DNA of 64,000 nt, from assembly GCA_000092065.1 (NCBI GenBank), contig CP000584.1; one strand, given 5' to 3'. Source of the stretch: Ostreococcus lucimarinus (Eukaryota). The position numbers and the translations under genes were made by a program. The notes under the pieces were generated by a model, which did not search any database, was not told the origin of the DNA, and worked only from the letters and a program-made list of their open reading frames with translations. Shown one piece after another: positions 7,291-56,348 of this stretch; the first letter of the stretch is position 1; the number at the start of each line of letters is the position of its first letter.

Positions 7291-8391
7291 ATGGCGCCGG
7301 GTCGCGATCCGCGTTCGTTCGACGACGGCGCGTTCGCGACGACGCGATGCGGTTCGCGACGGACGACGACGCGACGCTCGTTTCGGACGCGCGTCGCGAC
7401 GAAGGCGCTCGATCGACGCGTCGACGAAAGCGACGCGTCGACGAATCGAATCGTTCGCTCGAACGCGTCGACGTGTGGCGATCGAACCGACGCGCGTCGA
7501 CCGGCGATCGCGACGCGCGGCGACGCGATGCGGGACGCGGTGTACTACCCGGACGACGACGACGACGCGCGCGAGGACGCGCGCGAGGACGGCGCGACGA
7601 CGACGACGCGCGCGGGCGCGACGACGACGACGACGACGACGACGATCGCGACGGGCGATGCGAGCGAAGGCGATGGGAAAGCGCGCGCGACGATCGCGAC
7701 GGGCGCGCGCGAGGGAGGGGGGAGTTACACCACGCCGGGAGTGGTTCCGCCGGTGATGCCGACGCGGTTGGTGAGCGCGAGGACGTACGAGAGCGAACCG
7801 GCGAGAGGGACGCCGGTGAGCGCGATTGAGACGCGACCGCGACCGCAGACGATCGCGCGCGCGCAGGGCGGCGTGTTCGCGTTCGTGTCGCCGATGTTCG
7901 CGGACATGGATGATCCTCAAGTGCGCGCGGTGATGGAACGGGAGTTCGCGCGCGAGTTGGGGTTGCCCGAGGGCGAACTGCCGGTGGATTTGGAGCACTT
8001 CATGCTGGCGCGACAGTTGAGTCGCGTGGTGCGTTTGTTCGCGTTGATCGATATGGTGTTGTGCGTGTTGTACGCGCTGAGCGGGGTGAGCGTGATCGCG
8101 GTGTTACTCATAGGCCCGCTCGCTGGGTTCGTGGGGGCGCGCATGTACAGTCCAGGGCTCACCGCTTGTTACGTGGCGTTTTGCGTGGCGTCCATCGTTT
8201 GGCGAATTTTGAATTTCGTCTTTATGAAAAATGTCACCGCGCGCGTGCTGTCGGTGATCACCATCATCTTAGCGACGTACATCACGCGATTGGTGATTCG
8301 GTTTTATCACGTCGTGCGCGTGATACCGCTCGAGGGACAAATTTTGCTTCGGCAACTCGACTTCGCGAACTCGGCGGCGCCCGTGGTCTAA
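7291..8391 (+). CDS. Hypothetical protein with a low-complexity N-terminal half and a C-terminal 3-4 helix membrane domain
   Basis: Track ORF 7276..8391 starts at TTG; the first ATG is 7291. The C-terminus is hydrophobic (VVRLFALIDMVLCVLYALSGVSVIAVLLIGPLAGFVGA.., VLSVITIILATYITRLVIRF). The true start is uncertain (later ATGs are possible). Confidence 0.5.
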   Translation: MAPGRDPRSFDDGAFATTRCGSRRTTTRRSFRTRVATKALDRRVDESDASTNRIVRSNASTCGDRTDARRPAIATRGDAMRDAVYYPDDDDDAREDAREDGATTTTRAGATTTTTTTTIATGDASEGDGKARATIATGAREGGGSYTTPGVVPPVMPTRLVSARTYESEPARGTPVSAIETRPRPQTIARAQGGVFAFVSPMFADMDDPQVRAVMEREFARELGLPEGELPVDLEHFMLARQLSRVVRLFALIDMVLCVLYALSGVSVIAVLLIGPLAGFVGARMYSPGLTACYVAFCVASIVWRILNFVFMKNVTARVLSVITIILATYITRLVIRFYHVVRVIPLEGQILLRQLDFANSAAPVV

Positions 8392-27680: not shown

Positions 27681-28020
27681 GTGCGCGACGCGAACGCGCG
27701 AGCGCCCGGAACGACGCGACGACGACCGCGCGAACGACGACCGCAAAACGGGGCGACGGGCGATGGCGCGGTAGAATATTCCCAGCGCGCGACCGTCGCG
27801 GAGGGGGGGGGAGGGCGCGCGTCGCGCGCGTCGCGCGCTCTAAAGAGAGACAAGAATGCGCGCGAAGGATGCGCGCGAGGACGCCGCGAATGGGGACGGT
27901 TCGCGCGCGATGGTGGGCGTCGAGCGCGCGAAGACGGCGAACGGAGGGCGGCGAGACGCGCGAACGACTCGAGGGCGTTGACTGACGGATTCACGCGATG
28001 CACGCGCGCGGGAAGCGTAG
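27681..28020 (+). other. Intron of the SPX gene (340 nt)
   Basis: Donor GTGCGC at 27681. GACTGAC at 27981-27986. Acceptor cgtAG at 28019-28020, 35 nt after the branch A. Phase 0. The spliced N-terminus MKFGQLFAATTASMAPNVREQFLDYKLLKQVLK aligns without gaps to the plant SPX consensus (MKFG..x17..FLxYKxLKKxLK). Confidence 0.75.
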
Positions 28021-46700: not shown

Positions 46701-47887
46701 AGCAACACGAAGGACGGTTATCAGAAACCAATCGCTTGGTCGCGCGCGACACATCGACTTTGCAAGCATACGCCGAGGTAATGACGGCGAGGCTGCTCAA
46801 CTTGGAAGCCGAAATCGCGGAACAAAAGCGAAAAGAAGAGGAATGGCAGGCGAGCAACATGCCGGGCGATGATGAGCGTCGCGCGCACGTGGAAAGATGT
46901 AAGCGCTACAGAGAGCTCATGCAACGCCTGCGTCAGGAGCACGAACGCGAGCGAAATAAACTGTTGGAATTCGTCAAGGAGTCGGAAGCAAAGATTGCCG
47001 ATTTGACCAGGCGCGTGCAGAGCAGCTGGGCAGGAGAATCCGAGGCTGAAGTCGCCAATCTCAACGCGCAGCTCGTGCGCGCAAATCAACGAATCGAAGA
47101 GCTCGAACGTCAGCTAAAAACCAAGCAACTCGCCGTCGACGCGACAGAAGGCGGTTTCACTTTGCTCACAGAAGTCGAATCCGCCGACGCAGAACTTCGA
47201 GACACCAGCGCCAAGCTCGCGACGAGCGTCGAAGAAGCCGCTCGACTTCGCGATGAACTCGAACAGTGCAAGACGCAAATCGAGTCGATGAGGGAAGAAA
47301 CGAAGAAAGCTGTGGAGAAGCAGCTGACGACCCGATTCCGGCGCGAGCTGGCGAGACACGAAGATGAGATCGAGCGATTGCGCGAACGTTGCTCGGCGTT
47401 CGCACCGCCGTGCGCATCCCTGGTTGAGGCTGTGCGCAAGATGTCGATACGCTTGTTGCGTATGTCAGCCGCTGTGGCGCACATGTCGAGACAAGCCCAA
47501 GGCAAGCAGTCGATATCAGAAACCCTGATGGCGAAAGATGCGAACGAAGTTGCTTCTTTGGTCGGGTTGTCGCTCGAGGAAATCACCTCGGTGTTTGCAG
47601 TGCAAAACATTCGTTCCGACGGTTCCGCGGATGAAGCGAAAACGGCGCTGAGCATGTTGGATTCACCGGAAAATATCGCCGCTGCGATCGCGTGGTGCGA
47701 GGCGCGTACCTTGCAACTCAACGACGCTTTGACATCGGAGGCTCCGATTGCCGAAGTCTGGAGAGACGATGCACTCGACGCCGTGACGTCGCTCGTGCAC
47801 GATCAAGCGAGCGCGGCTGAGACGTGCCTTCGCGAGTCCACGCCCGAACTTCAACGCTGGTGGATGGGATTAGCTACTAGTGACTAG
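43766..47887 (+). CDS. Large coiled-coil protein (1,373 aa)
   Basis: Full track ORF with ATG. It is E/R/L/A/K-rich with a heptad-like character throughout (e.g. ELEDERAVVIRLRRELREANGNAERLRESHEEAKK, LEATRESFERATAELEEVRESRAKL). No enzymatic motif seen. Confidence 0.75.
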   Translation: MDDRAVFKDGTNASRRRGEDAVETMREKLEKTSIKALRALEAKDAEIARLRAELRARERREGATTAFERRRRARRGGEDEGEMSDEETFEDEDRYRNARRGRTSASASASGARVGQLERELEDERAVVIRLRRELREANGNAERLRESHEEAKKFALASEKHAGALTERMQRLVCARDERWSERENAADASERALSARVAALTVESARASEEGERWRVKAQDLEEELRSIKAATFETEILNEEEDEDAGAAESAHRLRVRLAETRLALRQALASDSAEANTMASSQTSEQIGDALSMMSQSSRMTATKSARDNAKLASAEEKISSLKRVVKELRSTNNSQANELGRLEMLLREQIASSKLTLESAEATSENATHEREYFTNTLREREEELLVLRDTLSVLESDRSPATADGDWRRDEMNRAREKIIALETENASLVNERELLAGEVRQYRHELKGESERAEAYESIAKSARQREEILFAQLEWKTEECIAYMDAELELLSRLDDAERDNLDLEISLKSCEKALRLQVERLSQYSATQIGDLKRKVQQSVTDTVSTDAAANFCRGIQIALRQTDDGETTVNQRLEEALLDAQRTIALLECTSIKYEKAFTSAMRHVEKAEHRSESTKTAFDHVCAILELSQKSYASLSSKAMSSLENRLMTTHARNVKLSQIIVRGETDTGVELNEMEEELRDRDEKIELMKARIDELEVTGSELIGARESAASAMQAMSVARDKAKKEVFEEQDRLREAQRTIAELNARVAQLHEEFRASILEDQADQLRALVEEQAQTIASASMELEKRVNAETHAQERLAEITRELEATRESFERATAELEEVRESRAKLVERTDGQSEHPDVVTKLSQRTSELEKAIEVRDDRIRELEKSARFETALATKGTTATLGAKVDPHDAESLVTVALKDNRAAAVVAAAARDEVDRLKEEIRWRDDALAAVGASTTNVAMDESTRTELENIKSLLEGAFKQHEGRLSETNRLVARDTSTLQAYAEVMTARLLNLEAEIAEQKRKEEEWQASNMPGDDERRAHVERCKRYRELMQRLRQEHERERNKLLEFVKESEAKIADLTRRVQSSWAGESEAEVANLNAQLVRANQRIEELERQLKTKQLAVDATEGGFTLLTEVESADAELRDTSAKLATSVEEAARLRDELEQCKTQIESMREETKKAVEKQLTTRFRRELARHEDEIERLRERCSAFAPPCASLVEAVRKMSIRLLRMSAAVAHMSRQAQGKQSISETLMAKDANEVASLVGLSLEEITSVFAVQNIRSDGSADEAKTALSMLDSPENIAAAIAWCEARTLQLNDALTSEAPIAEVWRDDALDAVTSLVHDQASAAETCLRESTPELQRWWMGLATSD

Positions 47888-47921: not shown

Positions 47922-48412
47922 CTACGCTAATTTTCCCGCCTTCTGTAGCGCGATGCGTGCCTCGACCCGCGCCTTCGCGATTTGTGAATTTATCGCCGCC
48001 TGTCGCGCCTCGTCCGCTGGCGGTGGGGCCACGACGGGTTGTTGCGGACCAGCGCTGTGAAACGAGATTCCGTTTCGCTTGGCGAGGTACTTCTCCGTGA
48101 CCCGCTTCTGTTCATCAGCGAGCGCACGAGCGAAATCTTCCTCCTCCACTGGCGATTCGTCAAACGCAAATTTTGCCCCAGTGGCGAACGCGTCGCTCGC
48201 CGACACTCCATCTCGCGCGCAGGTCTCCATGAACTCTGGGTTCCTAAAAGTCGATGACGTGAACATCAACGCGCTCGGCGTCACGCCTCGTCGTCTCGCG
48301 ACGATTAAGAGGTCGTTCACTCTCTGTTGCGTCGCCTTCGTCTCCTCGCTCGTCTCGCTCGTCTCGCTCGTCGTCGCCCCGTATCTCGCCGCGATCGCCG
48401 CCACCCACGCGT

Positions 48413-48498
<86 letters not shown>

Positions 48499-48686
48499 CG
48501 ATCATCGACGTTCACCCTCGTCGTCATCGCCGTCGGTCGCGCCGGTCCCACGAACGCATCCTCGCCGTCGCTCGTCGCTTCGTCCGCCGTCTGCCGCGCC
48601 GATCCAGCGCGCGCCGGTCCCACGAAGCCACCGTCGTCGCCGTCGCCGTCGTCGCTGCTTCCGTACTCTCCCACGAACGCGTCCAT
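47922..48686 (-). CDS. HCNGP/SAP30BP-like protein (tentative) with an acidic D/G repeat
   Basis: ATG at 48686 (MDAFVGEYGSSDDGDGDDGG) within track ORF 47922..49571(-). The C-terminal part, TSSTFRNPEFMETCARDGVSASDAFATGAKFAFD, resembles the HCNGP domain. DDGDDGDDD is encoded by an imperfect 9/27-nt repeat at ~48411-48500. Confidence 0.55.
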
Positions 48687-49243
48687 CGTCGCGATGGGAC
48701 GGCGCGACGCGTCGGCGGCGTTCGTCCGAGTGTCGCGGCGCGAACGCGCGACGCGCGAACAAAGGGTCGCGGATATTTTGGTTTTTCGAAAATTCGAATG
48801 GATGCGATCAAATCTACGTATACGGTGTGTAAAAAACGCCATCACGAGTGGATAGGGTTCTGCATCCAAATCTTTAAATCGCGCGGCGCAGCTGTCGACG
48901 TTTTGGCGCGCAAGATGACGGATGAGTTTCGACGCCGCGCCGCACACCTCGCCGCTCGACGAGGTTATAAATCTAAATCTCGAGCGAAACGAACTGCATC
49001 GATTCGATCGTGTTCCGCGCGAGCATCGCGTCGTCATCCGCGCTTGAGGGAGCGCGCACGGACAACGCGCGCGCGAACGGCGTCGAACGAATTCGCTTGT
49101 TCCCCCGATCTCGACACATCGCCGATCGCGCGCATCGGCGACGTCGATTTCGAGCGCGTCGCGGGAGTGTTCGGTGACGAACGCGCGCGTGGACGTGAGA
49201 ACGAACGTCGTTCGTTCACCGCGAGCGGCGCTCGCGCGAAGGC

Positions 49244-49584
49244 ATGGCTGGGAAACGCGCGACGCCGGTAAAAGATGCGTCGAAAAACAAACCGAAAACG
49301 ACGCCGGTGAAGAAGTCGACGATGAAGGCGCCGCGGGACGGGGCGTCGGCGCCGAATTCGCCGGCGGGGCGTGGAACGCCGCGACGAGCGACGGCGAATA
49401 AGGCAACAGAAAGAATGAAGGAAATGGCTGTGAAGACGGAGGACATGGATGAGGACTACGCGTTCGACGGGGATGACGATTACGCCGCGGCGCCGAGCGC
49501 GCCGGCGAGCGGGCGCACGACGCCGAAGAAGTACAGAGCGCGCGTCGTGGGAGGATCAGCACCGCCGACACCGATGAGCAAGAG
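49244..49584 (+). CDS. DNMT5: DNMT5, exon 1 (113 codons + 2 nt), basic/acidic leader
   Basis: ATG at 49244 (track ORF 49244..49630): MAGKRATPVKDASKNKPKTTPVKK..GRTTPKKYRARVVGGSAPPTPMSK. The exon ends AG|GTACGC at 49584/49585. Confidence 0.65.
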
Positions 49585-49831
49585 GTACGCTAGTAGTGGT
49601 TCTTTGATTTTATCTCCGTTGCGCGCGTGAACAGGACGGCGCGGATGAGAGAAAAGGGGAATCGCGATCAGGGCGCCCGCGGGTGCCCGCGACGCGTTTC
49701 CCGCCCGAACTGCGTCGCCGACGGCAAACGCGCGCCTCACGCGACGTTGACGCGCTTCGGGCGCGTTGAAATCGCGCGTATACATGGATGACTGACGAAT
49801 ATTTTTTCACCTCTTGTTTCATTTTTAACAG
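49585..49831 (+). other. Intron of DNMT5 (247 nt)
   Basis: Donor GTACGC at 49585. GACTGAC at 49790-49796. Pyrimidine tract ttttttcacctcttgtttcattttt and acceptor aaCAG at 49829-49831, 36 nt after the branch A. Phase 2: ag + a gives AGA (Arg), then continues in the frame of track ORF 49788..56348 (..PMSK-R-SPGGSPRKSGDSD..). Confidence 0.7.
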
Positions 49832-52800
49832 ATCTCCGGGTGGTTCTCCGCGCAAGAGCGGAGACAGCGACAGCGGCGCGAGCGGCAACCCGAGAACGCA
49901 ACTCGCGGAGCATTTGCCCGTGATTGCGGATATCGGTGGTATGTTTGCCGATCTTGTTAGTCGTGTTCCGGGCATGGAGAACTTCTTGACGGCGATGAAG
50001 CGCCCGTTACGCGTCGCGACGATGTGCTCTGGCACGGAGTCGCCGCTTCTCGCACTCGACAAGATTGGGGACGCCACGGAAAAACTCTATGGTACGCGTC
50101 TCGCCGTCGACCACGTGTTCTCGTGCGAGATCGAACCGTTCAAGCAAGCATACATCGAGCGTAACTTCGCGCCGCCAATCCTCTTTCGCGATATTCGCGA
50201 ATTAGGCGGCGACCAGGCGACGACGGCTTACGGCGCGAAAATCAACGTGCCGCACGACGTCGACATGCTCGTCGCGGGTACTTCTTGTGTCGATTACTCC
50301 AACTTGAACAACGAGCGTAAGGGTCTCGAGGCACAAGGGGAGTCTGGTCAAACGTTCCGCGGGATGATGAACTGGATCAGAAAGAGCCAACCACCGATCA
50401 TCATCTTGGAGAACGTGTGCAACGCGCCGTGGGATCAAGTGCAGAAGAAGTTTGAAGACGAGGGCTACCACGCGCGTTTCATGCGCGTGGACACGAAGCG
50501 GTTCTACATTCCGCACACGCGTACGCGTGTGTACTTGTTTGCGTGCAAAGCGAGCGATGCATCGCTCGTCGAAGCGTGGAAGGGTATGGTAAAGTCGCTC
50601 GAGCGACCGGCGAGCGCGACGCTCGAAGCATTCCTCTTCGACGCCGACGATCCTCGTGTACACGAAGGTCGACGTATGTTGGCTCGCCCGGGTGAAGATT
50701 CGACGCGCGCAAACACTGACTGGGGACGGTGCGAATCTCGTCATCAACGCGCACGCTTGGAGGAAGGTTTGGGTCAGCGTCGCCCGTTCACGCATTGGGA
50801 TGGCGGTTGCACGCTCCCCGACTTTGCATGGAACGACTGGGGTAAGGCTCAGACCGACCGCGTGCTTGACTTGATGGACATCGACTATTTACGCCTTGCG
50901 CAACTTGATATTGATTCCATGCACAAGACTTTGGTTTGGAACCTCTCTCAAAACGTCGATCGTACCACCGGCTCGGTCGCTCCGGGAATTTGCCCGTGCC
51001 TGACGCCATCGATGGTGCCGTTCGTCACCAACCGTGGTGGTCCTCTCGTCGGCATTGAAGCTCTGAGCTTACAAGGGATTCCGGTCGATGACTTGTTGTT
51101 GACCCGTGAAAGCGAGAACCAAATGAGCGATTTAGCCGGCAACGCGATGACGACGACCGTCGTCGGCGCTTGCATGCTCGCCGCGATGACTCTCATGACG
51201 GACAACCTCGCCGCAAAGAAGCACAAGACGGCTCGACGCGCTTTACTGCTTGACGATGATTCCAAGGAGAGCTCGCAAACTATGCAAGGCTCGCTGACAG
51301 TCGTTCAAGCTGCTGCGGCTAAGAAGACGGAGGTCGTCGGGCAAGACAAGTTGGTGAAGCGTCCCCTCGATCTCGGCATGAAGCCAGTCGGGATGAAGGA
51401 GCTCCTCAGCAAGGCGAACAGATCTGCGCGTTTGTGCGTGTGCGAAGGTGAAACTGGCACCACTGATGCGGATTCTCTCGTCATTTGCCGTGACTGCTCT
51501 CACACGTGCTGTATCAAGTGCTGCGGGCGACCCGAACACAACTACGAGAAGCACGTCGTCGATCGCATCTTGCCGGAGGATTTCAAAGAAGACTTGAAAA
51601 ACTCTCTGCCGATGCACATGAAGTTGGATGTGAGCTCGGCCAAGTTTACGAAACCGAAAGAACTTCTTGGTAAAGTGTGGGACGACTGGATGGACGCGAT
51701 CAAGGCTATTGGGGAAGCTGATTTCTTGTTCCGAGGCATGAAGCGAACCAACGTCTGGCGCGTGTATTACTCGTGCGCTTCTGAGGACAAAGTACGCTTG
51801 GAATTGCGCATCGCTCCTAACGCGGCCGAGTGGTTGATCTTCGTTGATCCTTCCATCAAGAAGGGCAAACCGGAGGAGTTCCATGAACGCCCGTTGATGC
51901 GTATGCTCTTGGACAAGTCGGCGAAGAGCGTCTTGGACGGCACGTGGGAGTTCTTCTCGCCAGAGTACGCCGCGGTGCCGGTTATTCTTGAAGGTAAGGG
52001 CGAACTCGAAGATTCTTGGCAGATCAAGCTCGGTATGTTGACCAACAGCAAGCTGAACGGTGACGTGAATTGGCCGGAGGAACGTTGGACTCAGTACGAA
52101 GTTAAGCTGAAAGATCCGAAGAACGCGACAGAGTTTGATCGCAGCATCACCGGCACCTACCAGCTTTATGACAAATGCGACGCCGCTCAAAGTTCATTGC
52201 ACAAGCGCATTGGTGGCCCGCAAAATGGTCGCGAAATGTACTTCTTCATGGACCCCAGACGTAACCAAAAGGGTGAATTTGACTACTTCGTGTTTGCGGA
52301 TAACCATCGTCGTTTGATGTATGGTGAAGACCGCATGGAGACGGCGCACTTGGATTTCCGAAACCTTGGACAGCCTCCTTCGGGAGATCGTTTCCGTCCG
52401 AGTGATAAGAAGGTTGTCGAACACATGGCTCACACGTTTGGAAAATGGACTGCTCTGCCGCAAAAGGTTGCCCTCATGCCCGCCGTCGTCCAAAACGCCG
52501 TCGTGTTGACGCCGCCGGTGAACGCCGTCCCGACTCAAGGCGAGGACTCGTGCTCGAAGGCGGTTGCCATCATGCGTTGCTCCGTTCCTTTGTCTAGCGT
52601 TGATGTCGATTTGTGGCCCGAGAATGGATACACGACTGTGCGTCTTGACAAGAGTCATGCTACCTTCCAACGCCTCGAGTGGTTCACGTCTCGCATGGAA
52701 CTTCCGAAGGTTGTGGAGAAGTGGAACCAGCTCAGCGACGATCACGCGTTGTCGTGCGATAAATTCGCTTGCTCGCGATGTGCGCCGACGCCGCCGACTC

Positions 52801-55800
52801 TTTTGTGGAGCCGACAAGTCGGTTCGCAAAAGATTCAAGCCCGTGAAGATCCGTTGCAGGCATCCAAATATGAACAAGCGCTCAAGTGTCGACCCGAGCC
52901 ATTCGTCGTGCAATGGACTCGCGAGAAGACGACGGGCAACTTGATGATTGCTGGTAACCCAGCTACGCTCGTTCATCGTGCTCTTGCGCTTGTCGCTCCG
53001 TCTGGTGTTCGAGGCATCGAATCAAAGGCGCCGCATATGTCGTGGAGAATCGTTCGACACGACGACCGCCCGATGGACAACTTTGGGGAGTTTGAATTGA
53101 AGAGCAACCGTCACGACAAGCAAGTTGCGCAACCGCCGAACTGGAGCAAGAAGTACCCACTTCGCCCAGAACAACTGCGCTCGCTTGGGTGGATGGTTCA
53201 GCAAGAGATCAACGAAACGCCGTTCGTGGAAGAGGAAATTTGTGAAAAACTTCTTCCGGCTTTGGGCCTTCGCATGGATGGCAAGGCGGAAGTCTCAAAG
53301 GTGATTCGCGGCGGCATCGTGGCCGATCAAGTTGGTTACGGGAAAACGGCCATCTCCATCGGGGTCATCTTGGCGAACCAGCTCAAGTTCCCGACGCCCA
53401 AGCAAGCTAAAGTTGATGCTCCGGTCAAAGCGATTCCGACCAAGGCAACGCTTGTCATCGCGCCGTCTCAGTTGCTCCGCCAATGGCCGAGAGAGGTTGA
53501 GAAGTTCAGCGCGAGAGGTTCTTTGAACACGGTCGTTCTCAAGACAATGTCTGATCTCAACTCTTTGACGGCGCGAGAGGTCATGGAAGCAGATGTTGTC
53601 ATCGTCGCTACGACTCTCTTCAGATCTTCGCTGTACTTTGAGCGTCTCGCGCAACTCGCCGGTCGACCTTCTCTTCCGGATCCGAAATCTTCGAGCCAAG
53701 CGCGCCACTTCACGAGCGTGTACAAGGACACTGTGGCGAGCCTCGAAGACCAAGTCATGCGATTGACCGATAAGAAACTTGGTGTCGCTGAGGTTGCCAA
53801 ACACGTTCGTTGTGGCACTTCTACGCTCAGCGACGTCGCCGTCACAGCGGCGCCCAAACGTCTCAAGGGCGCAAAGCTCATCGAAATGACCGAAAAGGCT
53901 GGCGGCGAAGGTTACGAGTTCGTCGAGGCCTTGCACAAGGAACGCCAGCAGGCTTTGGACAAGGAGAATGTTCAAAAACCGATCAATGTTGAGCCGACAA
54001 GTGCTCCGGTCACGCCGTCCAAGCCTAAGAAGACGCCGACGAAGAAGACGCCGACGAAGAAGACGCCGACGAAGAAGACGCCGACGAAGAAGACGCCGAC
54101 GAAGAAGACGCCGACGAAGAAGACGCCGATGAAGTCACCGATCCGCGCGTCTGCGCGAAACACGCCGCGTAAGTCATACGCTGAAGATGATAGCATGGAA
54201 ACTGATGATGAGATCTCTGATTGGGATGACGATGAATCGCTGGATGGCAGTGAAAGCGAGGAATTCGTCAAGGAAAAGTCGACGCCGAAGCGTAAGCGCA
54301 TCGTTAAGCAACGAAGCATGGAAATTGACGCCGATGGCAATAAAGATCATTGGGGTCTCGAAAGCGCTCAAGCTGAGTACGACTGGCGTGACATCAAGTC
54401 TGTTCCTGTCGAGCTATTCCACTGGCGCCGCGTCATCGTCGATGAGTTTACATACTTGAAGCCGTCCGATAAGGCCGTCGTCATGGGACTTCAATCTGAA
54501 TCCCGTTGGTGCTTGTCTGGTACTCCGCCGGTGGGCGACTTTGCCGACATCAAGGGTACCGCTGCTTTACTCGGTATCAACCTCGGCAGCGACGAAGTTC
54601 CGCGCTATAACAAGTCGGAAATCACGAAGGTGGAGACGTTCCAATTCTTTAAGGAGAAGCCGACACAACAATGGCACAAGCGAAGATGGGAGGTGGCGCA
54701 AGGCTTTTTGAACCGTTACATGCGACAAAACATTGCTGAAATCGATGAGATCAAGTTCAAAGAAGATGTGTGTGATGTTCAACTTCGACCAGCTGAGCGT
54801 GCTATCTACCTTGAGCTCGATCACTACTTGCAATCCATGGACATGAAGGCGAAGAAGAAGAAGCGAGGCGCGTCTGAGAGTGACCGCGACGCCCGTCTCG
54901 CTGCCGTCCTCGGCAACTCTTCTTCCGCAGAAGAAGCACTTCTGAAGCGCGTGGCGCACTTCGAATTGGATGACGAAGCGGGAACTGCGCTTCGAACTTG
55001 CCAAGACATCGTGAACGTTCGCAAGACTCAACAAGAAGATTGCTTGAAGGAATTCGGTGAAGCCATTCTCAAGGCGCGCGCCATGTTGTCGCAAATGTCT
55101 CAGATGCCTGACTTTACTCCGGAAGACAATCCGTTCATCCGATGGGAGAACGGCGTTCAAGGCGAAGGTATCGGTGACCCCACAGCGAGCGAACTTCTCA
55201 AGGGCGTTCTCAAGGAGCAAACCGAAGCCAAGGCTGCTAAGACCGCGCACCTCTTGCAAACGCGCCCGCCCGTCGGATCGACCATCGCGGTGTTTTCTGT
55301 TGAAGAGCAAGAATGGATTGAAGGTGAAGTTCGCGGTTATAGTGGTCAGTGGAAGCAAAAAGCTTCCGTCTACTACGACGCCAAGACTCGTAAGGATGAA
55401 GATTTGACCAAGGTTGACTGGAAGGTGGTCAAGGCTGTTGAAGGCGAGCCGAGCTCCACGATGGACTCTGGGAAATCCGTATCCATGAAGAAGACGAAGA
55501 CGGCATCCCTCGACGATAAGCTCTGGGAGCTGCGAGAGCATACGCACGGTCTCCGCAAGTTGCAAAAAGAGCTTGTCGGTCGAGTGCGCTCTTTGCGCTT
55601 CTTCCAGTCTGTTCGTGACTTGCAACAAGCCAAGATGGACGATTCGGTCAAGTGCGAAGCGTGCTCGAAGAAGTTTGCCAAGTCAAAGTCTGGCGTCCTA
55701 TCTACGTGCGGCCATATTGGTTGCGTCACCTGCCTCAAGGTCAACGCCGAGAACCAAGAGTGTGGCGTGAAGAACTGCGATTGCGCTACTCGTGACACGT

Positions 55801-56348
55801 CCGTCGTGACCGCGGTCTCTCTTGGCACCGAGGCCAGCGCGGACTCCAAGTCTATCAAGACTGATGGTGGCGTCGGCGTGCACGGTTCAAAGATCATCGA
55901 CATCGTCGCTCACATCAAGTCCATCCCGGATGACGAACGAATCCTGGTCTTCGTGCAATTTCCTGACTTGATGCAACAAGTGAGCTCCGCGCTCAACGAA
56001 GCTGGTATCAAAACGCTCAAGCTCAAGGGCTCGGTGCATCAACAAACGGGCGCGCTCGACGAGTTCCAAAAAGAAAACTTGAAGAAGGATGATGCTCGCG
56101 TTCTCTTGCTTTTGAGCCGAGACGAAAGTGCGTCTGGAGCCAACTTGACGACGGCTAACCACGCCATCTTCGTTCACCCCTTGCTCACGAACACTGCTCA
56201 GGAGTACATCGCCAGCGAGACGCAAGCCATCGGTCGCATCCGCCGCTACGGGCAACAGCGCGAAGTGCGCATCTGGCGCTTCATCGCTCGCGATTCCGTC
56301 GACTCTGAAATCTTGAGTCAGCGCGCCGCTGGCTTGATGCAGAACTAA
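49832..56348 (+). CDS. DNMT5: DNMT5: cytosine-5 DNA methyltransferase fused to a RING-like Cys cluster and an SNF2-family ATPase, exon 2
   Basis: Track ORF 49788..56348. C5-MTase-like motifs ATMCSGTESPLLAL, AGTSCVDYSNLN (catalytic Cys), IILENVCNAPW, QGIPVDD..AGNAMTTTVVG. SNF2: ADQVGYGKTAISIG, VIVDEFTYLK, ILVFVQFPDLMQQVSSALNEAGIKTLKLKGS, SGANLTTANHAIFVHPLL, QAIGRIRRYGQQREVRIWRF. Cys cluster CEACSKKFAKSKSGVLSTCGHIGCVTCL. Confidence 0.9.
54027..54131 (+). repeat. Seven tandem copies of a 15-bp unit (aagaagacgccgacg) inside DNMT5, encoding (KKTPT)6-KKTPM
   Basis: Six copies are identical at the nucleotide level. The seventh differs by one base (gatg for gacg). Confidence 0.9.

Follow-up and report, generated by a model that had tools for sequence, protein, structure and literature searches.

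The DNA considered here is a stretch of 64,000 nucleotides on contig CP000584.1 of the alga Ostreococcus lucimarinus (GenBank assembly GCA_000092065.1), which is referred to below as the window and numbered from its first letter. Between positions 49244 and 56348 its plus strand carries the gene for DNMT5, a large protein that combines a C5 cytosine methyltransferase with an SNF2 ATPase; that this gene consists of two exons and encodes a protein of 2,285 residues can be regarded as practically certain. Exon 1 (49244..49584), in the following termed the leader, comprises 341 nt, i.e. 113 codons plus 2 nt, and begins with MAGKRATPVK; its ATG at 49244 is the first one downstream of an in-frame stop located 14 codons upstream, and its 3′ end reads AAGAG/GTACGC, the slash marking the splice border. 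It is followed by a GT-AG intron of phase 2 with a length of 247 nt (49585..49831), which has the donor AG/GTACGC, a T-rich tract and the acceptor AACAG/A, its 3′ end reading TTTTTAACAG/A. Exon 2 (49832..56348) then provides an open frame up to the stop codon at 56346-56348. Splicing of 49584 to 49832 in silico is in frame and generates a single uninterrupted coding sequence of 2,285 codons. Within the intron, a CTGAC element is found at 49792-49796 with the branch A 36 nt ahead of the acceptor G, and this element is overlapped by the ATG at 49788, which heads an unspliced open reading frame (ORF) of 2,186 residues (49788-56348). The composite signal AG/GTRCGY..CTRAC..YAG matches three times on both strands of the window, compared to ca. 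1.1 matches expected from a first-order Markov model, and one of the three is the intron at 49585-49831. The other two matches, at 27681-28020 (+) and 47430-47709 (-), are possibly introns of other genes.

The sequence-only reading of the window had recognized a DNMT5 architecture in the large ORF, and this is borne out both by Pfam domains and by a match to the structurally characterized DNMT5 of Cryptococcus neoformans (pdb-codes: 7R76, 7R77, 7R78 and 7T02, deposited as 'DNA repair protein Rad8'). A methyltransferase with the catalytic cysteine, an SNF2_N and a Helicase_C domain are present on one polypeptide within the 2,186 codons, all features named here being on the plus strand. The C5 cytosine methyltransferase domain (50022..51164; PF00145 DNA_methylase, E 2.2e-16) contains the DNMT5-type motif IV (GTSC in AGTSCVDYS, 50274-50300) as well as the ENV (ILENV, 50403-50429) and GNAMT (AGNAMT, 51132-51158) motifs recognizable in the sequence; the serine preceding the cysteine in motif IV is a trait of DNMT5 (PMC9998398). 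Downstream of the methyltransferase, a Cys-rich cluster CVCEG..CRDCSHTCCIKCCGRPEH (51435..51545) is kept in DNMT5 homologues of other lineages. The first part of the N-terminal lobe of the SNF2 ATPase (53172..53672; PF00176 SNF2-rel_dom, E 6.7e-21) aligns to residues 1464-1543 of 7R76 and is separated by a variable insertion (53673..54359), not alignable to the C. neoformans enzyme, from a second part (54360..55649), which aligns to residues 1669-1816 of 7R76 and onward. Between the SNF2 lobes, where most DNMT5a and DNMT5b proteins have a RING finger, lies a putative RING-type zinc finger (55650..55778), for which the zf-RING_5 match (E 2.5e-4, 21.4 bits) stays below the 27.9-bit cut-off; its Cys/His pattern is visible and residues 1926-2162 also match the RAD5 structure 6L8N. 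The C-terminal SNF2 lobe follows as Helicase_C (55914..56252; PF00271, E 4e-6). In a phmmer search, chain A of 7R76 was matched with E = 0 and 1,353 bits in three stretches, the best of which pairs query residues 24-1280 with chain residues 282-1543; the domain order is the same and the homology extends over the methyltransferase, the middle region and the SNF2/RING/Helicase_C part. C. neoformans DNMT5 is an ATP-dependent maintenance CG methyltransferase and defines the family (PMC10538959). As far as sequence can establish, the protein encoded in the window is thus a full-length member of it.

The proposed exon structure was compared among related loci, 80 of which derive from a scan of metagenome contigs, while protein searches yielded two further leaders of the Ostreococcus type. 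In eight Ostreococcus lineages a homologous exon of 329-341 nt is present, which starts with MAGK, varies in length by multiples of three only and invariably ends in phase 2. The same lineages share the donor AG/GTRCGY, a CTRAC element 30-45 nt upstream of a YAG acceptor and an exon 2 that starts with (R)S(P)GG(S/T)PRK. The intron lengths amount to 158, 159, 229, 230, 232, 239, 247, 254, 255, 257 and 258 nt with indels of 1-8 nt even within clades, and indels located there disrupt the reading frame from the leader to exon 2. Between clades, exon 1 shows identities of 64-73% and exon 2 of 74-78%, compared to 42-58% for the intron and 48% for shuffled controls, so that the intron identity is at about the random level. 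Purifying selection acts on exon 1, with pairwise dN/dS values of 0.10-0.36 at dS values of up to 1.7. At the protein level, the leader ORF is conserved precisely up to the donor, the read-through sequences beyond it being unrelated and of variable length, and conservation picks up again exactly at the acceptor. The ATG at 49788 is not conserved. In two Ostreococcus clades a stop is located just 5′ of exon 2, and no in-frame ATG follows it before the conserved exon 2 sequence begins; since the first ca. 45 residues of exon 2 are nevertheless conserved, they have to be reached from upstream. The apparent MTDEYFF start had been interpreted beforehand as intron sequence at the branch site, an interpretation with which the conservation of CTRAC, and not of the ATG, agrees. 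Outside Ostreococcus, a leader exon likewise precedes exon 2 in the loci of Micromonas (65-72% G+C) and Bathycoccus (44-49% G+C), with only one phase-compatible GT...AG interval at the position homologous to the intron. One locus (L003) appeared in tblastn as an intronless orthologue, with query residues 1-354 in one frame, and was dropped as such; its DNA contains an intron of 159 nt with an in-frame stop, the length of which is a multiple of three by chance.

RNA evidence for the splicing comes from a transcript of a sister Ostreococcus lineage. An exhaustive search of cluster representatives retrieved an unspliced representative of 2,177 residues (P0159), whose cluster includes a 2,304-residue ORF (P0303) designated 'type:complete' from an MMETSP-labelled transcript. 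The corresponding contig L083 (JGI/IMG sample 3300016841, 8,152 nt) aligns in two blocks with L041 and L045, genomic contigs from that lineage, and the sole segment skipped (4291-4547 in L041, 4291-4548 in L045; 257 and 258 nt, respectively) is exactly the intron predicted from the sequence alone. In L083 in-frame stops precede the ATG, and P0303 is colinear with the spliced window protein from Met1 to the C-terminus (1-2284 versus 1-2303, 76% identity). The leader exon joined by a phase-2 intron, as it had been proposed for the window, is therefore borne out by at least ten Mamiellales lineages and by an orthologous transcript lacking the predicted intron; the evidence for the junction corresponding to 49584/49832 is positive in L083 and not in the strain of the window. 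Three findings speak against the two-exon model. First, no transcript from O. lucimarinus itself was found, the RNA originating from a sister lineage whose methyltransferase region shows 84% identity. Second, an exact look-up in the protein collection did not return the spliced 2,285-residue protein, the unspliced 2,186-residue protein being likewise absent. Third, word-indexed protein searches returned only unspliced ORFs and no spliced product for O. lucimarinus. A further candidate for a junction-spanning protein, P0144 from a Logan assembly (window ca. 49000-49830), was rejected. It is a 279-residue 'protein' MVGKCVMLVKDVLKNKLK..., in which C reads as T and which reads through the intron; the read-through indicates genomic DNA and not RNA, apparently assembled from bisulfite-sequencing reads. 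The transcript contig L083 also contains a partial convergent gene (7324-8151, -), which reflects either 3′-overlapping transcripts of neighbours or a merger during assembly.

The leader and the insertion in the SNF2 domain are both rich in S/T-P-x-K/R sites. All 16 sites of the 2,285-residue protein are located either in residues 7-122, which cover the leader and the beginning of exon 2, or in residues 1508-1601 of the SNF2 insertion, and the remaining 2,049 residues contain none. Composition-preserving shuffles predict 0.56 sites in the leader and 0.95 in the insertion, compared to 5 (p about 5e-5) and 11 observed, respectively. The strings TPVKK, TPKK and SPAGRGTPRR, to which attention had been drawn in the leader, are all present. 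Leader and insertion, the latter ca. 230 residues long, are organized according to the same basic-acidic-basic plan, with every S/T-P in a basic and none in an acidic block. The leader consists of a basic S/T-P block (residues 1-58, net charge +12), an acidic/aromatic block (residues 59-82, -8) including AFDGDDDY, and a second basic S/T-P block that extends from residues 83-113 into exon 2 (+8). In the insertion, a basic T/S-P-x-K block with 10 sites (53988-54182, net charge +19) is followed by an acidic block (54183-54278, -15) and a basic TPKRKR block (54279-54326, +5).

Across the Ostreococcus lineages the leader sites TPVK, SP, GTP(R/K)R and TP(K/R)K as well as the last TP before the splice site are invariant, at an overall leader identity between clades of only about 50-65%. 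The leaders of Micromonas and Bathycoccus are longer (144-195 residues) and alike in plan; they share a core (G/T)TP(R/K)R(A/G)AA...K, downstream of which lies an acidic/aromatic stretch. The block plan of the insertion is kept in four Ostreococcus clades, Bathycoccus and Micromonas, and its flanks SARNTPRK(S/N)Y, its acidic block and TPKRKR are also conserved. The orthologue alignment suggested along with the original prediction thus confirms the conservation of the leader exon and of the KKTPT linker, with the qualification that Bathycoccus and Micromonas exhibit 4-8 TPxK sites at the corresponding place of the insertion and no KKTPT repeat. This repeat is encoded by a tandem array with a period of 15 nt (54027-54134; Tandem Repeats Finder: 7.2 copies, 98% matches). 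Described beforehand as (KKTPT)7, it is indeed present, although seven is slightly generous, as there are six KKTPT units and one KKTPM. Four clades share the identical peptide unit in 4-7 copies, despite different codons. Its copy number varies between clades and among metagenome contigs of the same species (loci L004-L046), whereby the counts may be affected by repeat collapse in short-read assembly. At the DNA level the units are homogenised within a species, the third codon being ACG in one species and ACC in another. Identical units within and different units between species point to concerted evolution by slippage, and the overall pattern is the one expected of slippage under selection on the peptide.

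For comparison, 18 other full-length DNMT5 homologues, mostly of the fungal type and not including the Cryptococcus protein, were scored; they contain 0-4 S/T-P-x-K/R sites each with at most 3 per 120 residues, whereas two Ostreococcus DNMT5 proteins contain 12 and 16 sites with up to 11 per 120 residues. Among the DNMT5 proteins sampled, clusters of these sites are, judged by their sequences, specific to the Mamiellales. A search with the SNF2 insertion, aimed at DNMT5 of the other linker-methylating lineages Emiliania and Aureococcus, returned only Mamiellales-like fragments, low-complexity words having probably dominated the selection of candidates. Pfam revealed no family in the leader or in the insertion and no H15 winged-helix domain in the leader or the large ORF. 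AlphaFold (AF2) did not provide a confident fold for the leader (mean pLDDT 58, pTM 0.15, one weak helix at residues 46-66).

Several known systems share features with these segments. The C-terminal tail of histone H1 and the SPKK segments of sea-urchin sperm H1 and H2B are similarly lysine-rich, lack a predicted fold and consist of repeated S/T-P-K/x-K units that double as sites of cyclin-dependent kinases (CDKs). In the H1 tail such units bind linker DNA, and phosphorylation loosens the binding. The likeness is restricted to the tail, since the algal DNMT5 has no winged-helix globular domain and is hence not an H1. In contrast to SPKK, the commonest algal unit is T-P-T-K instead of S-P-K-K, and the algal tails form part of an enzyme, where an acidic block follows each of them. 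HMGA proteins are comparable by virtue of disordered basic segments, proline-directed phosphosites that in HMGA lower the affinity for DNA, and an acidic segment. The leader string GRGTPRR resembles an AT-hook whose central Arg is replaced by Thr; the G-R-P core of the AT-hook is absent from the O. lucimarinus leader, whereas a true RGRP core occurs in some Micromonas leaders. The N-termini of many fungal-type DNMT5 proteins (P0205, P0206, P0220, P0247, P0249, P0281, P0283 and P0295) contain AT-hook-like G-R-P-R/K-R motifs (including GRPRR and GRPKR) 165-190 residues ahead of the methyltransferase anchor; ..SY and an acidic tract often come next. Ostreococcus displays GRGTPRRA 130 residues upstream of the same anchor and ARNTPRKSYAEDD in the SNF2 insertion, a likeness that is suggestive. 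Homology of the leader GRGTPRR to the fungal-type GRPRR motif was considered and discarded, as phmmer produced no alignment; what is left is a resemblance at a similar position relative to the methyltransferase.

The first ca. 281 residues of C. neoformans DNMT5, which we take to include a chromodomain, do not align with the algal leader, and the SNF2 loop of that enzyme is ca. 125 residues long compared to ca. 230 in the alga, the two sequences being unrelated. In diatoms, haptophytes and dinoflagellates, DNMT5b and DNMT5c are told apart partly by accessory N-terminal modules (PMC9998398). In contrast to the algal leader, these modules are folded domains (laminin-B-receptor, methyl-CpG-binding, HAND and Tudor) or a long unannotated extension, and an S/T-P-x-K/R leader is not described for green-algal DNMT5 in that study (PMC9998398).

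On these grounds, we tentatively propose that the two tails might serve as a phospho-switchable anchor for DNA or chromatin, a function we consider possible although short of probable. The basic blocks would, like the H1 tail or the flanks of the HMGA AT-hooks, attract the enzyme electrostatically to accessible linker DNA, and nuclear import could be an additional function of the TPKRKR block. The proline-directed sites fit the full CDK consensus, and their multisite phosphorylation could cancel the charge of +12 to +19 and release the DNA, while the adjacent acidic blocks could compete intramolecularly for the basic ones. The net effect would be a cell-cycle switch on chromatin engagement, which would tie the maintenance methylation of nucleosome linkers to a window of the cell cycle. 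Mamiellales are devoid of DNMT1 and DNMT3, and their CG methylation, which is almost entirely confined to nucleosome linkers, has been linked to DNMT5 (PMC5082852, PMC9998398, PMC9246332). Except for M. pusilla, the species with described linker-specific methylation do not have the winged helix of canonical H1 (PMC5728721), and O. tauri has no protein with an H15 domain (PMC9871001). A role of H1/SPKK-like tails with CDK sites in linker-DNA binding or cell-cycle control, which the sequence-only reading had tentatively suggested, becomes more plausible by the conserved motif positions, by the restriction of the clusters to Mamiellales among the sampled DNMT5 proteins, by the linker-specific methylation and by the mostly missing winged-helix H1. 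Taken as a whole, a two-exon DNMT5 equipped with H1-tail-like, phospho-controlled tails is, in our judgement, the best explanation of the data and reasonably probable. The more far-reaching idea that Mamiellales DNMT5 possesses its own H1-tail-like modules in the leader and the KKTPT insertion, which would dock on linker DNA, be switched off by CDKs and help to produce and time the periodic linker methylation and the nucleosome spacing in these very compact nuclei, has to be considered doubtful.

Several points weigh against a phospho-controlled linker anchor. Firstly, SPKK motifs prefer the AT-rich minor groove, with which the G+C content of the genome of about 60% contrasts. Secondly, the low AF2 confidence, obtained with a leader alignment of seven sequences, is weak evidence of disorder. 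Thirdly, the variation of the KKTPT copy number from 4 to 7 suggests a loose constraint on dosage. Fourthly, fungal-type DNMT5 proteins have basic/acidic N-terminal tails without S/T-P clusters, and some of the tail function may therefore be independent of phosphosites. Finally, it has been argued that linker-specific methylation could arise simply from an uncoupling of nucleosome remodelling from methylation maintenance (PMC5728721); if this uncoupling suffices, no special linker anchor is required.

Among the other explanations, the one that survives best accepts the leader as real and regards the tails only as a nuclear localization signal (NLS) and as flexible spacers, the S/T-P-x-K/R pattern then being a by-product of K/T/P-rich low complexity and slippage without any role in DNA binding or CDK control. 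TPKRKR resembles a classical monopartite NLS, the KKTPT array represents a tandem repeat at the DNA level, homogenised within species and variable in copy number, and both the missing confident fold of the leader and the tails of other DNMT5 proteins lacking S/T-P would be accommodated. However, composition-preserving shuffles yield about 10 times fewer motifs than observed, and the sites outside the repeat (TPVK, GTPRR, TPKK, NTPRK and TPKRKR) have kept their positions across lineages with saturated dS values of 0.8-1.7. Moreover, the TPxK clusters persist in Bathycoccus and Micromonas without the KKTPT repeat, and the KKTPT peptide is identical across clades despite differing codons. We consider this explanation rather unlikely.

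Another possibility focuses on the charge blocks instead of the phosphosites. Histone binding is typical of acidic stretches that contain aromatic anchors. The acidic/aromatic blocks (AFDGDDDY, ETDDEISDWDDDE) could serve as binding sites for histones H2A-H2B or auto-inhibit the SNF2 ATPase by mimicry of DNA, with the basic blocks as intramolecular partners, comparable to the regulatory patches of other remodellers. Such a role would fit the twofold occurrence of the basic-acidic-basic plan and its conservation across Mamiellales, as well as the position of the second copy inside the SNF2 domain at a loop that is also variable in the solved C. neoformans enzyme. On the other hand, no sequence match to a described histone-binding or auto-regulatory motif is present, Pfam having detected no family in the leader, and the conservation of the proline-directed sites in particular is left unexplained; the charge-block role thus appears improbable as the principal one.

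Intron retention is common in small algal genomes, and the ATG at 49788 is in frame with exon 2 in O. lucimarinus. One might therefore envisage two isoforms, the spliced full-length protein and a leaderless one that arises from an intronic transcription start or from intron retention, with ATG 49788 or a Met of exon 2 as its start codon. ATG 49788 is, however, not conserved in other clades, and the only transcript found is the spliced one, which renders a second isoform very improbable. In the public genome record the locus is represented by two genes, but the possibility that this record is correct, with the leader ORF as an independent small gene (XP_001417392) and DNMT5 translated from ATG 49788 (MTDEYFF...), is next to nil: although both ORFs are open on their own and no transcript of this strain speaks for their fusion, the leader conservation stopping at the GT donor, the unrelated tails beyond it, the frame-breaking indels, the unconserved ATG with, in two clades, a stop and no ATG ahead of the ca. 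45 conserved exon 2 residues, and above all the precise joining of leader and exon 2 in the orthologous transcript L083, which contradicts a two-gene model, stand against it.

The two-exon DNMT5 gene has consequences for the public annotation. In RefSeq, exon 1 of O. lucimarinus CCE9901 is filed as an orphan 'predicted protein' of 102 residues (XP_001417392.1/ABO95685.1; P0126). In an exact-sequence look-up, the unspliced leader ORF fell into one cluster with this protein, and from Met27 of the leader across the donor into the intron the two are 100% identical, the protein ending with ...MSKRYASSGSLILSPLRA and the stop codon. XP_001417393 was used as O. lucimarinus DNMT5 in a comparative study, in the alignment of which the VFSCEIEPFKQ motif begins at residue 110 (PMC10538959). 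This position fits a translation from ATG 49788, and the RefSeq DNMT5 hence apparently starts inside the intron. RefSeq accordingly splits one locus into two genes, with its DNMT5 apparently beginning at an intronic ATG, and the annotation could be corrected by merging XP_001417392 into XP_001417393. In the supplement of the same study, VFSCE is numbered 82 in Bathycoccus XP_007511811 and the domain of M. pusilla XP_003063363 starts from 51 (PMC10538959). From this numbering only, both models are probably also truncated N-terminally at internal methionines. Unlike the reference models, the Bathycoccus and Micromonas loci of our set (L068 and L050-L053) contain the upstream leader exon and the phase-2 intron. 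The DNMT5 reference models employed in comparative studies thus appear to be N-terminally incomplete, clearly for O. lucimarinus and probably for Bathycoccus and M. pusilla, and domain comparisons, expression constructs and phylogenies built on them miss 110-195 residues.

Upstream of DNMT5, a divergently transcribed gene (47949-48947, -) encodes an HCNGP-like protein (PF07818, 25.1 bits, just under the 26.3-bit cut-off). Its start codon is separated from the DNMT5 ATG at 49244 by 296 bp only, and a bidirectional promoter is therefore probably common to both genes. An antisense ORF of 549 residues (47922-49571) represents an artificial extension of the HCNGP-like gene over the DNMT5 leader.

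Both the DNMT5 enzyme as such and its occurrence in O. lucimarinus have been known before. New, as far as the searchable literature shows, are the corrected 5′ end and the Mamiellales-specific H1-tail-like modules, which would replace the folded accessory domains of other DNMT5 subfamilies. The result is a solid annotation correction combined with a testable hypothesis, and no surprising new system. Mamiellales have no candidate other than DNMT5 for a maintenance CG methyltransferase, and the enzyme is linked to their unusual, linker-specific methylation that is thought to help in positioning nucleosomes. The 16 sites derived from the sequence define candidate regulatory phosphosites, and the two conserved tails offer a handle on a possible targeting of DNMT5 to linker DNA and on its possible coupling to the cell cycle.

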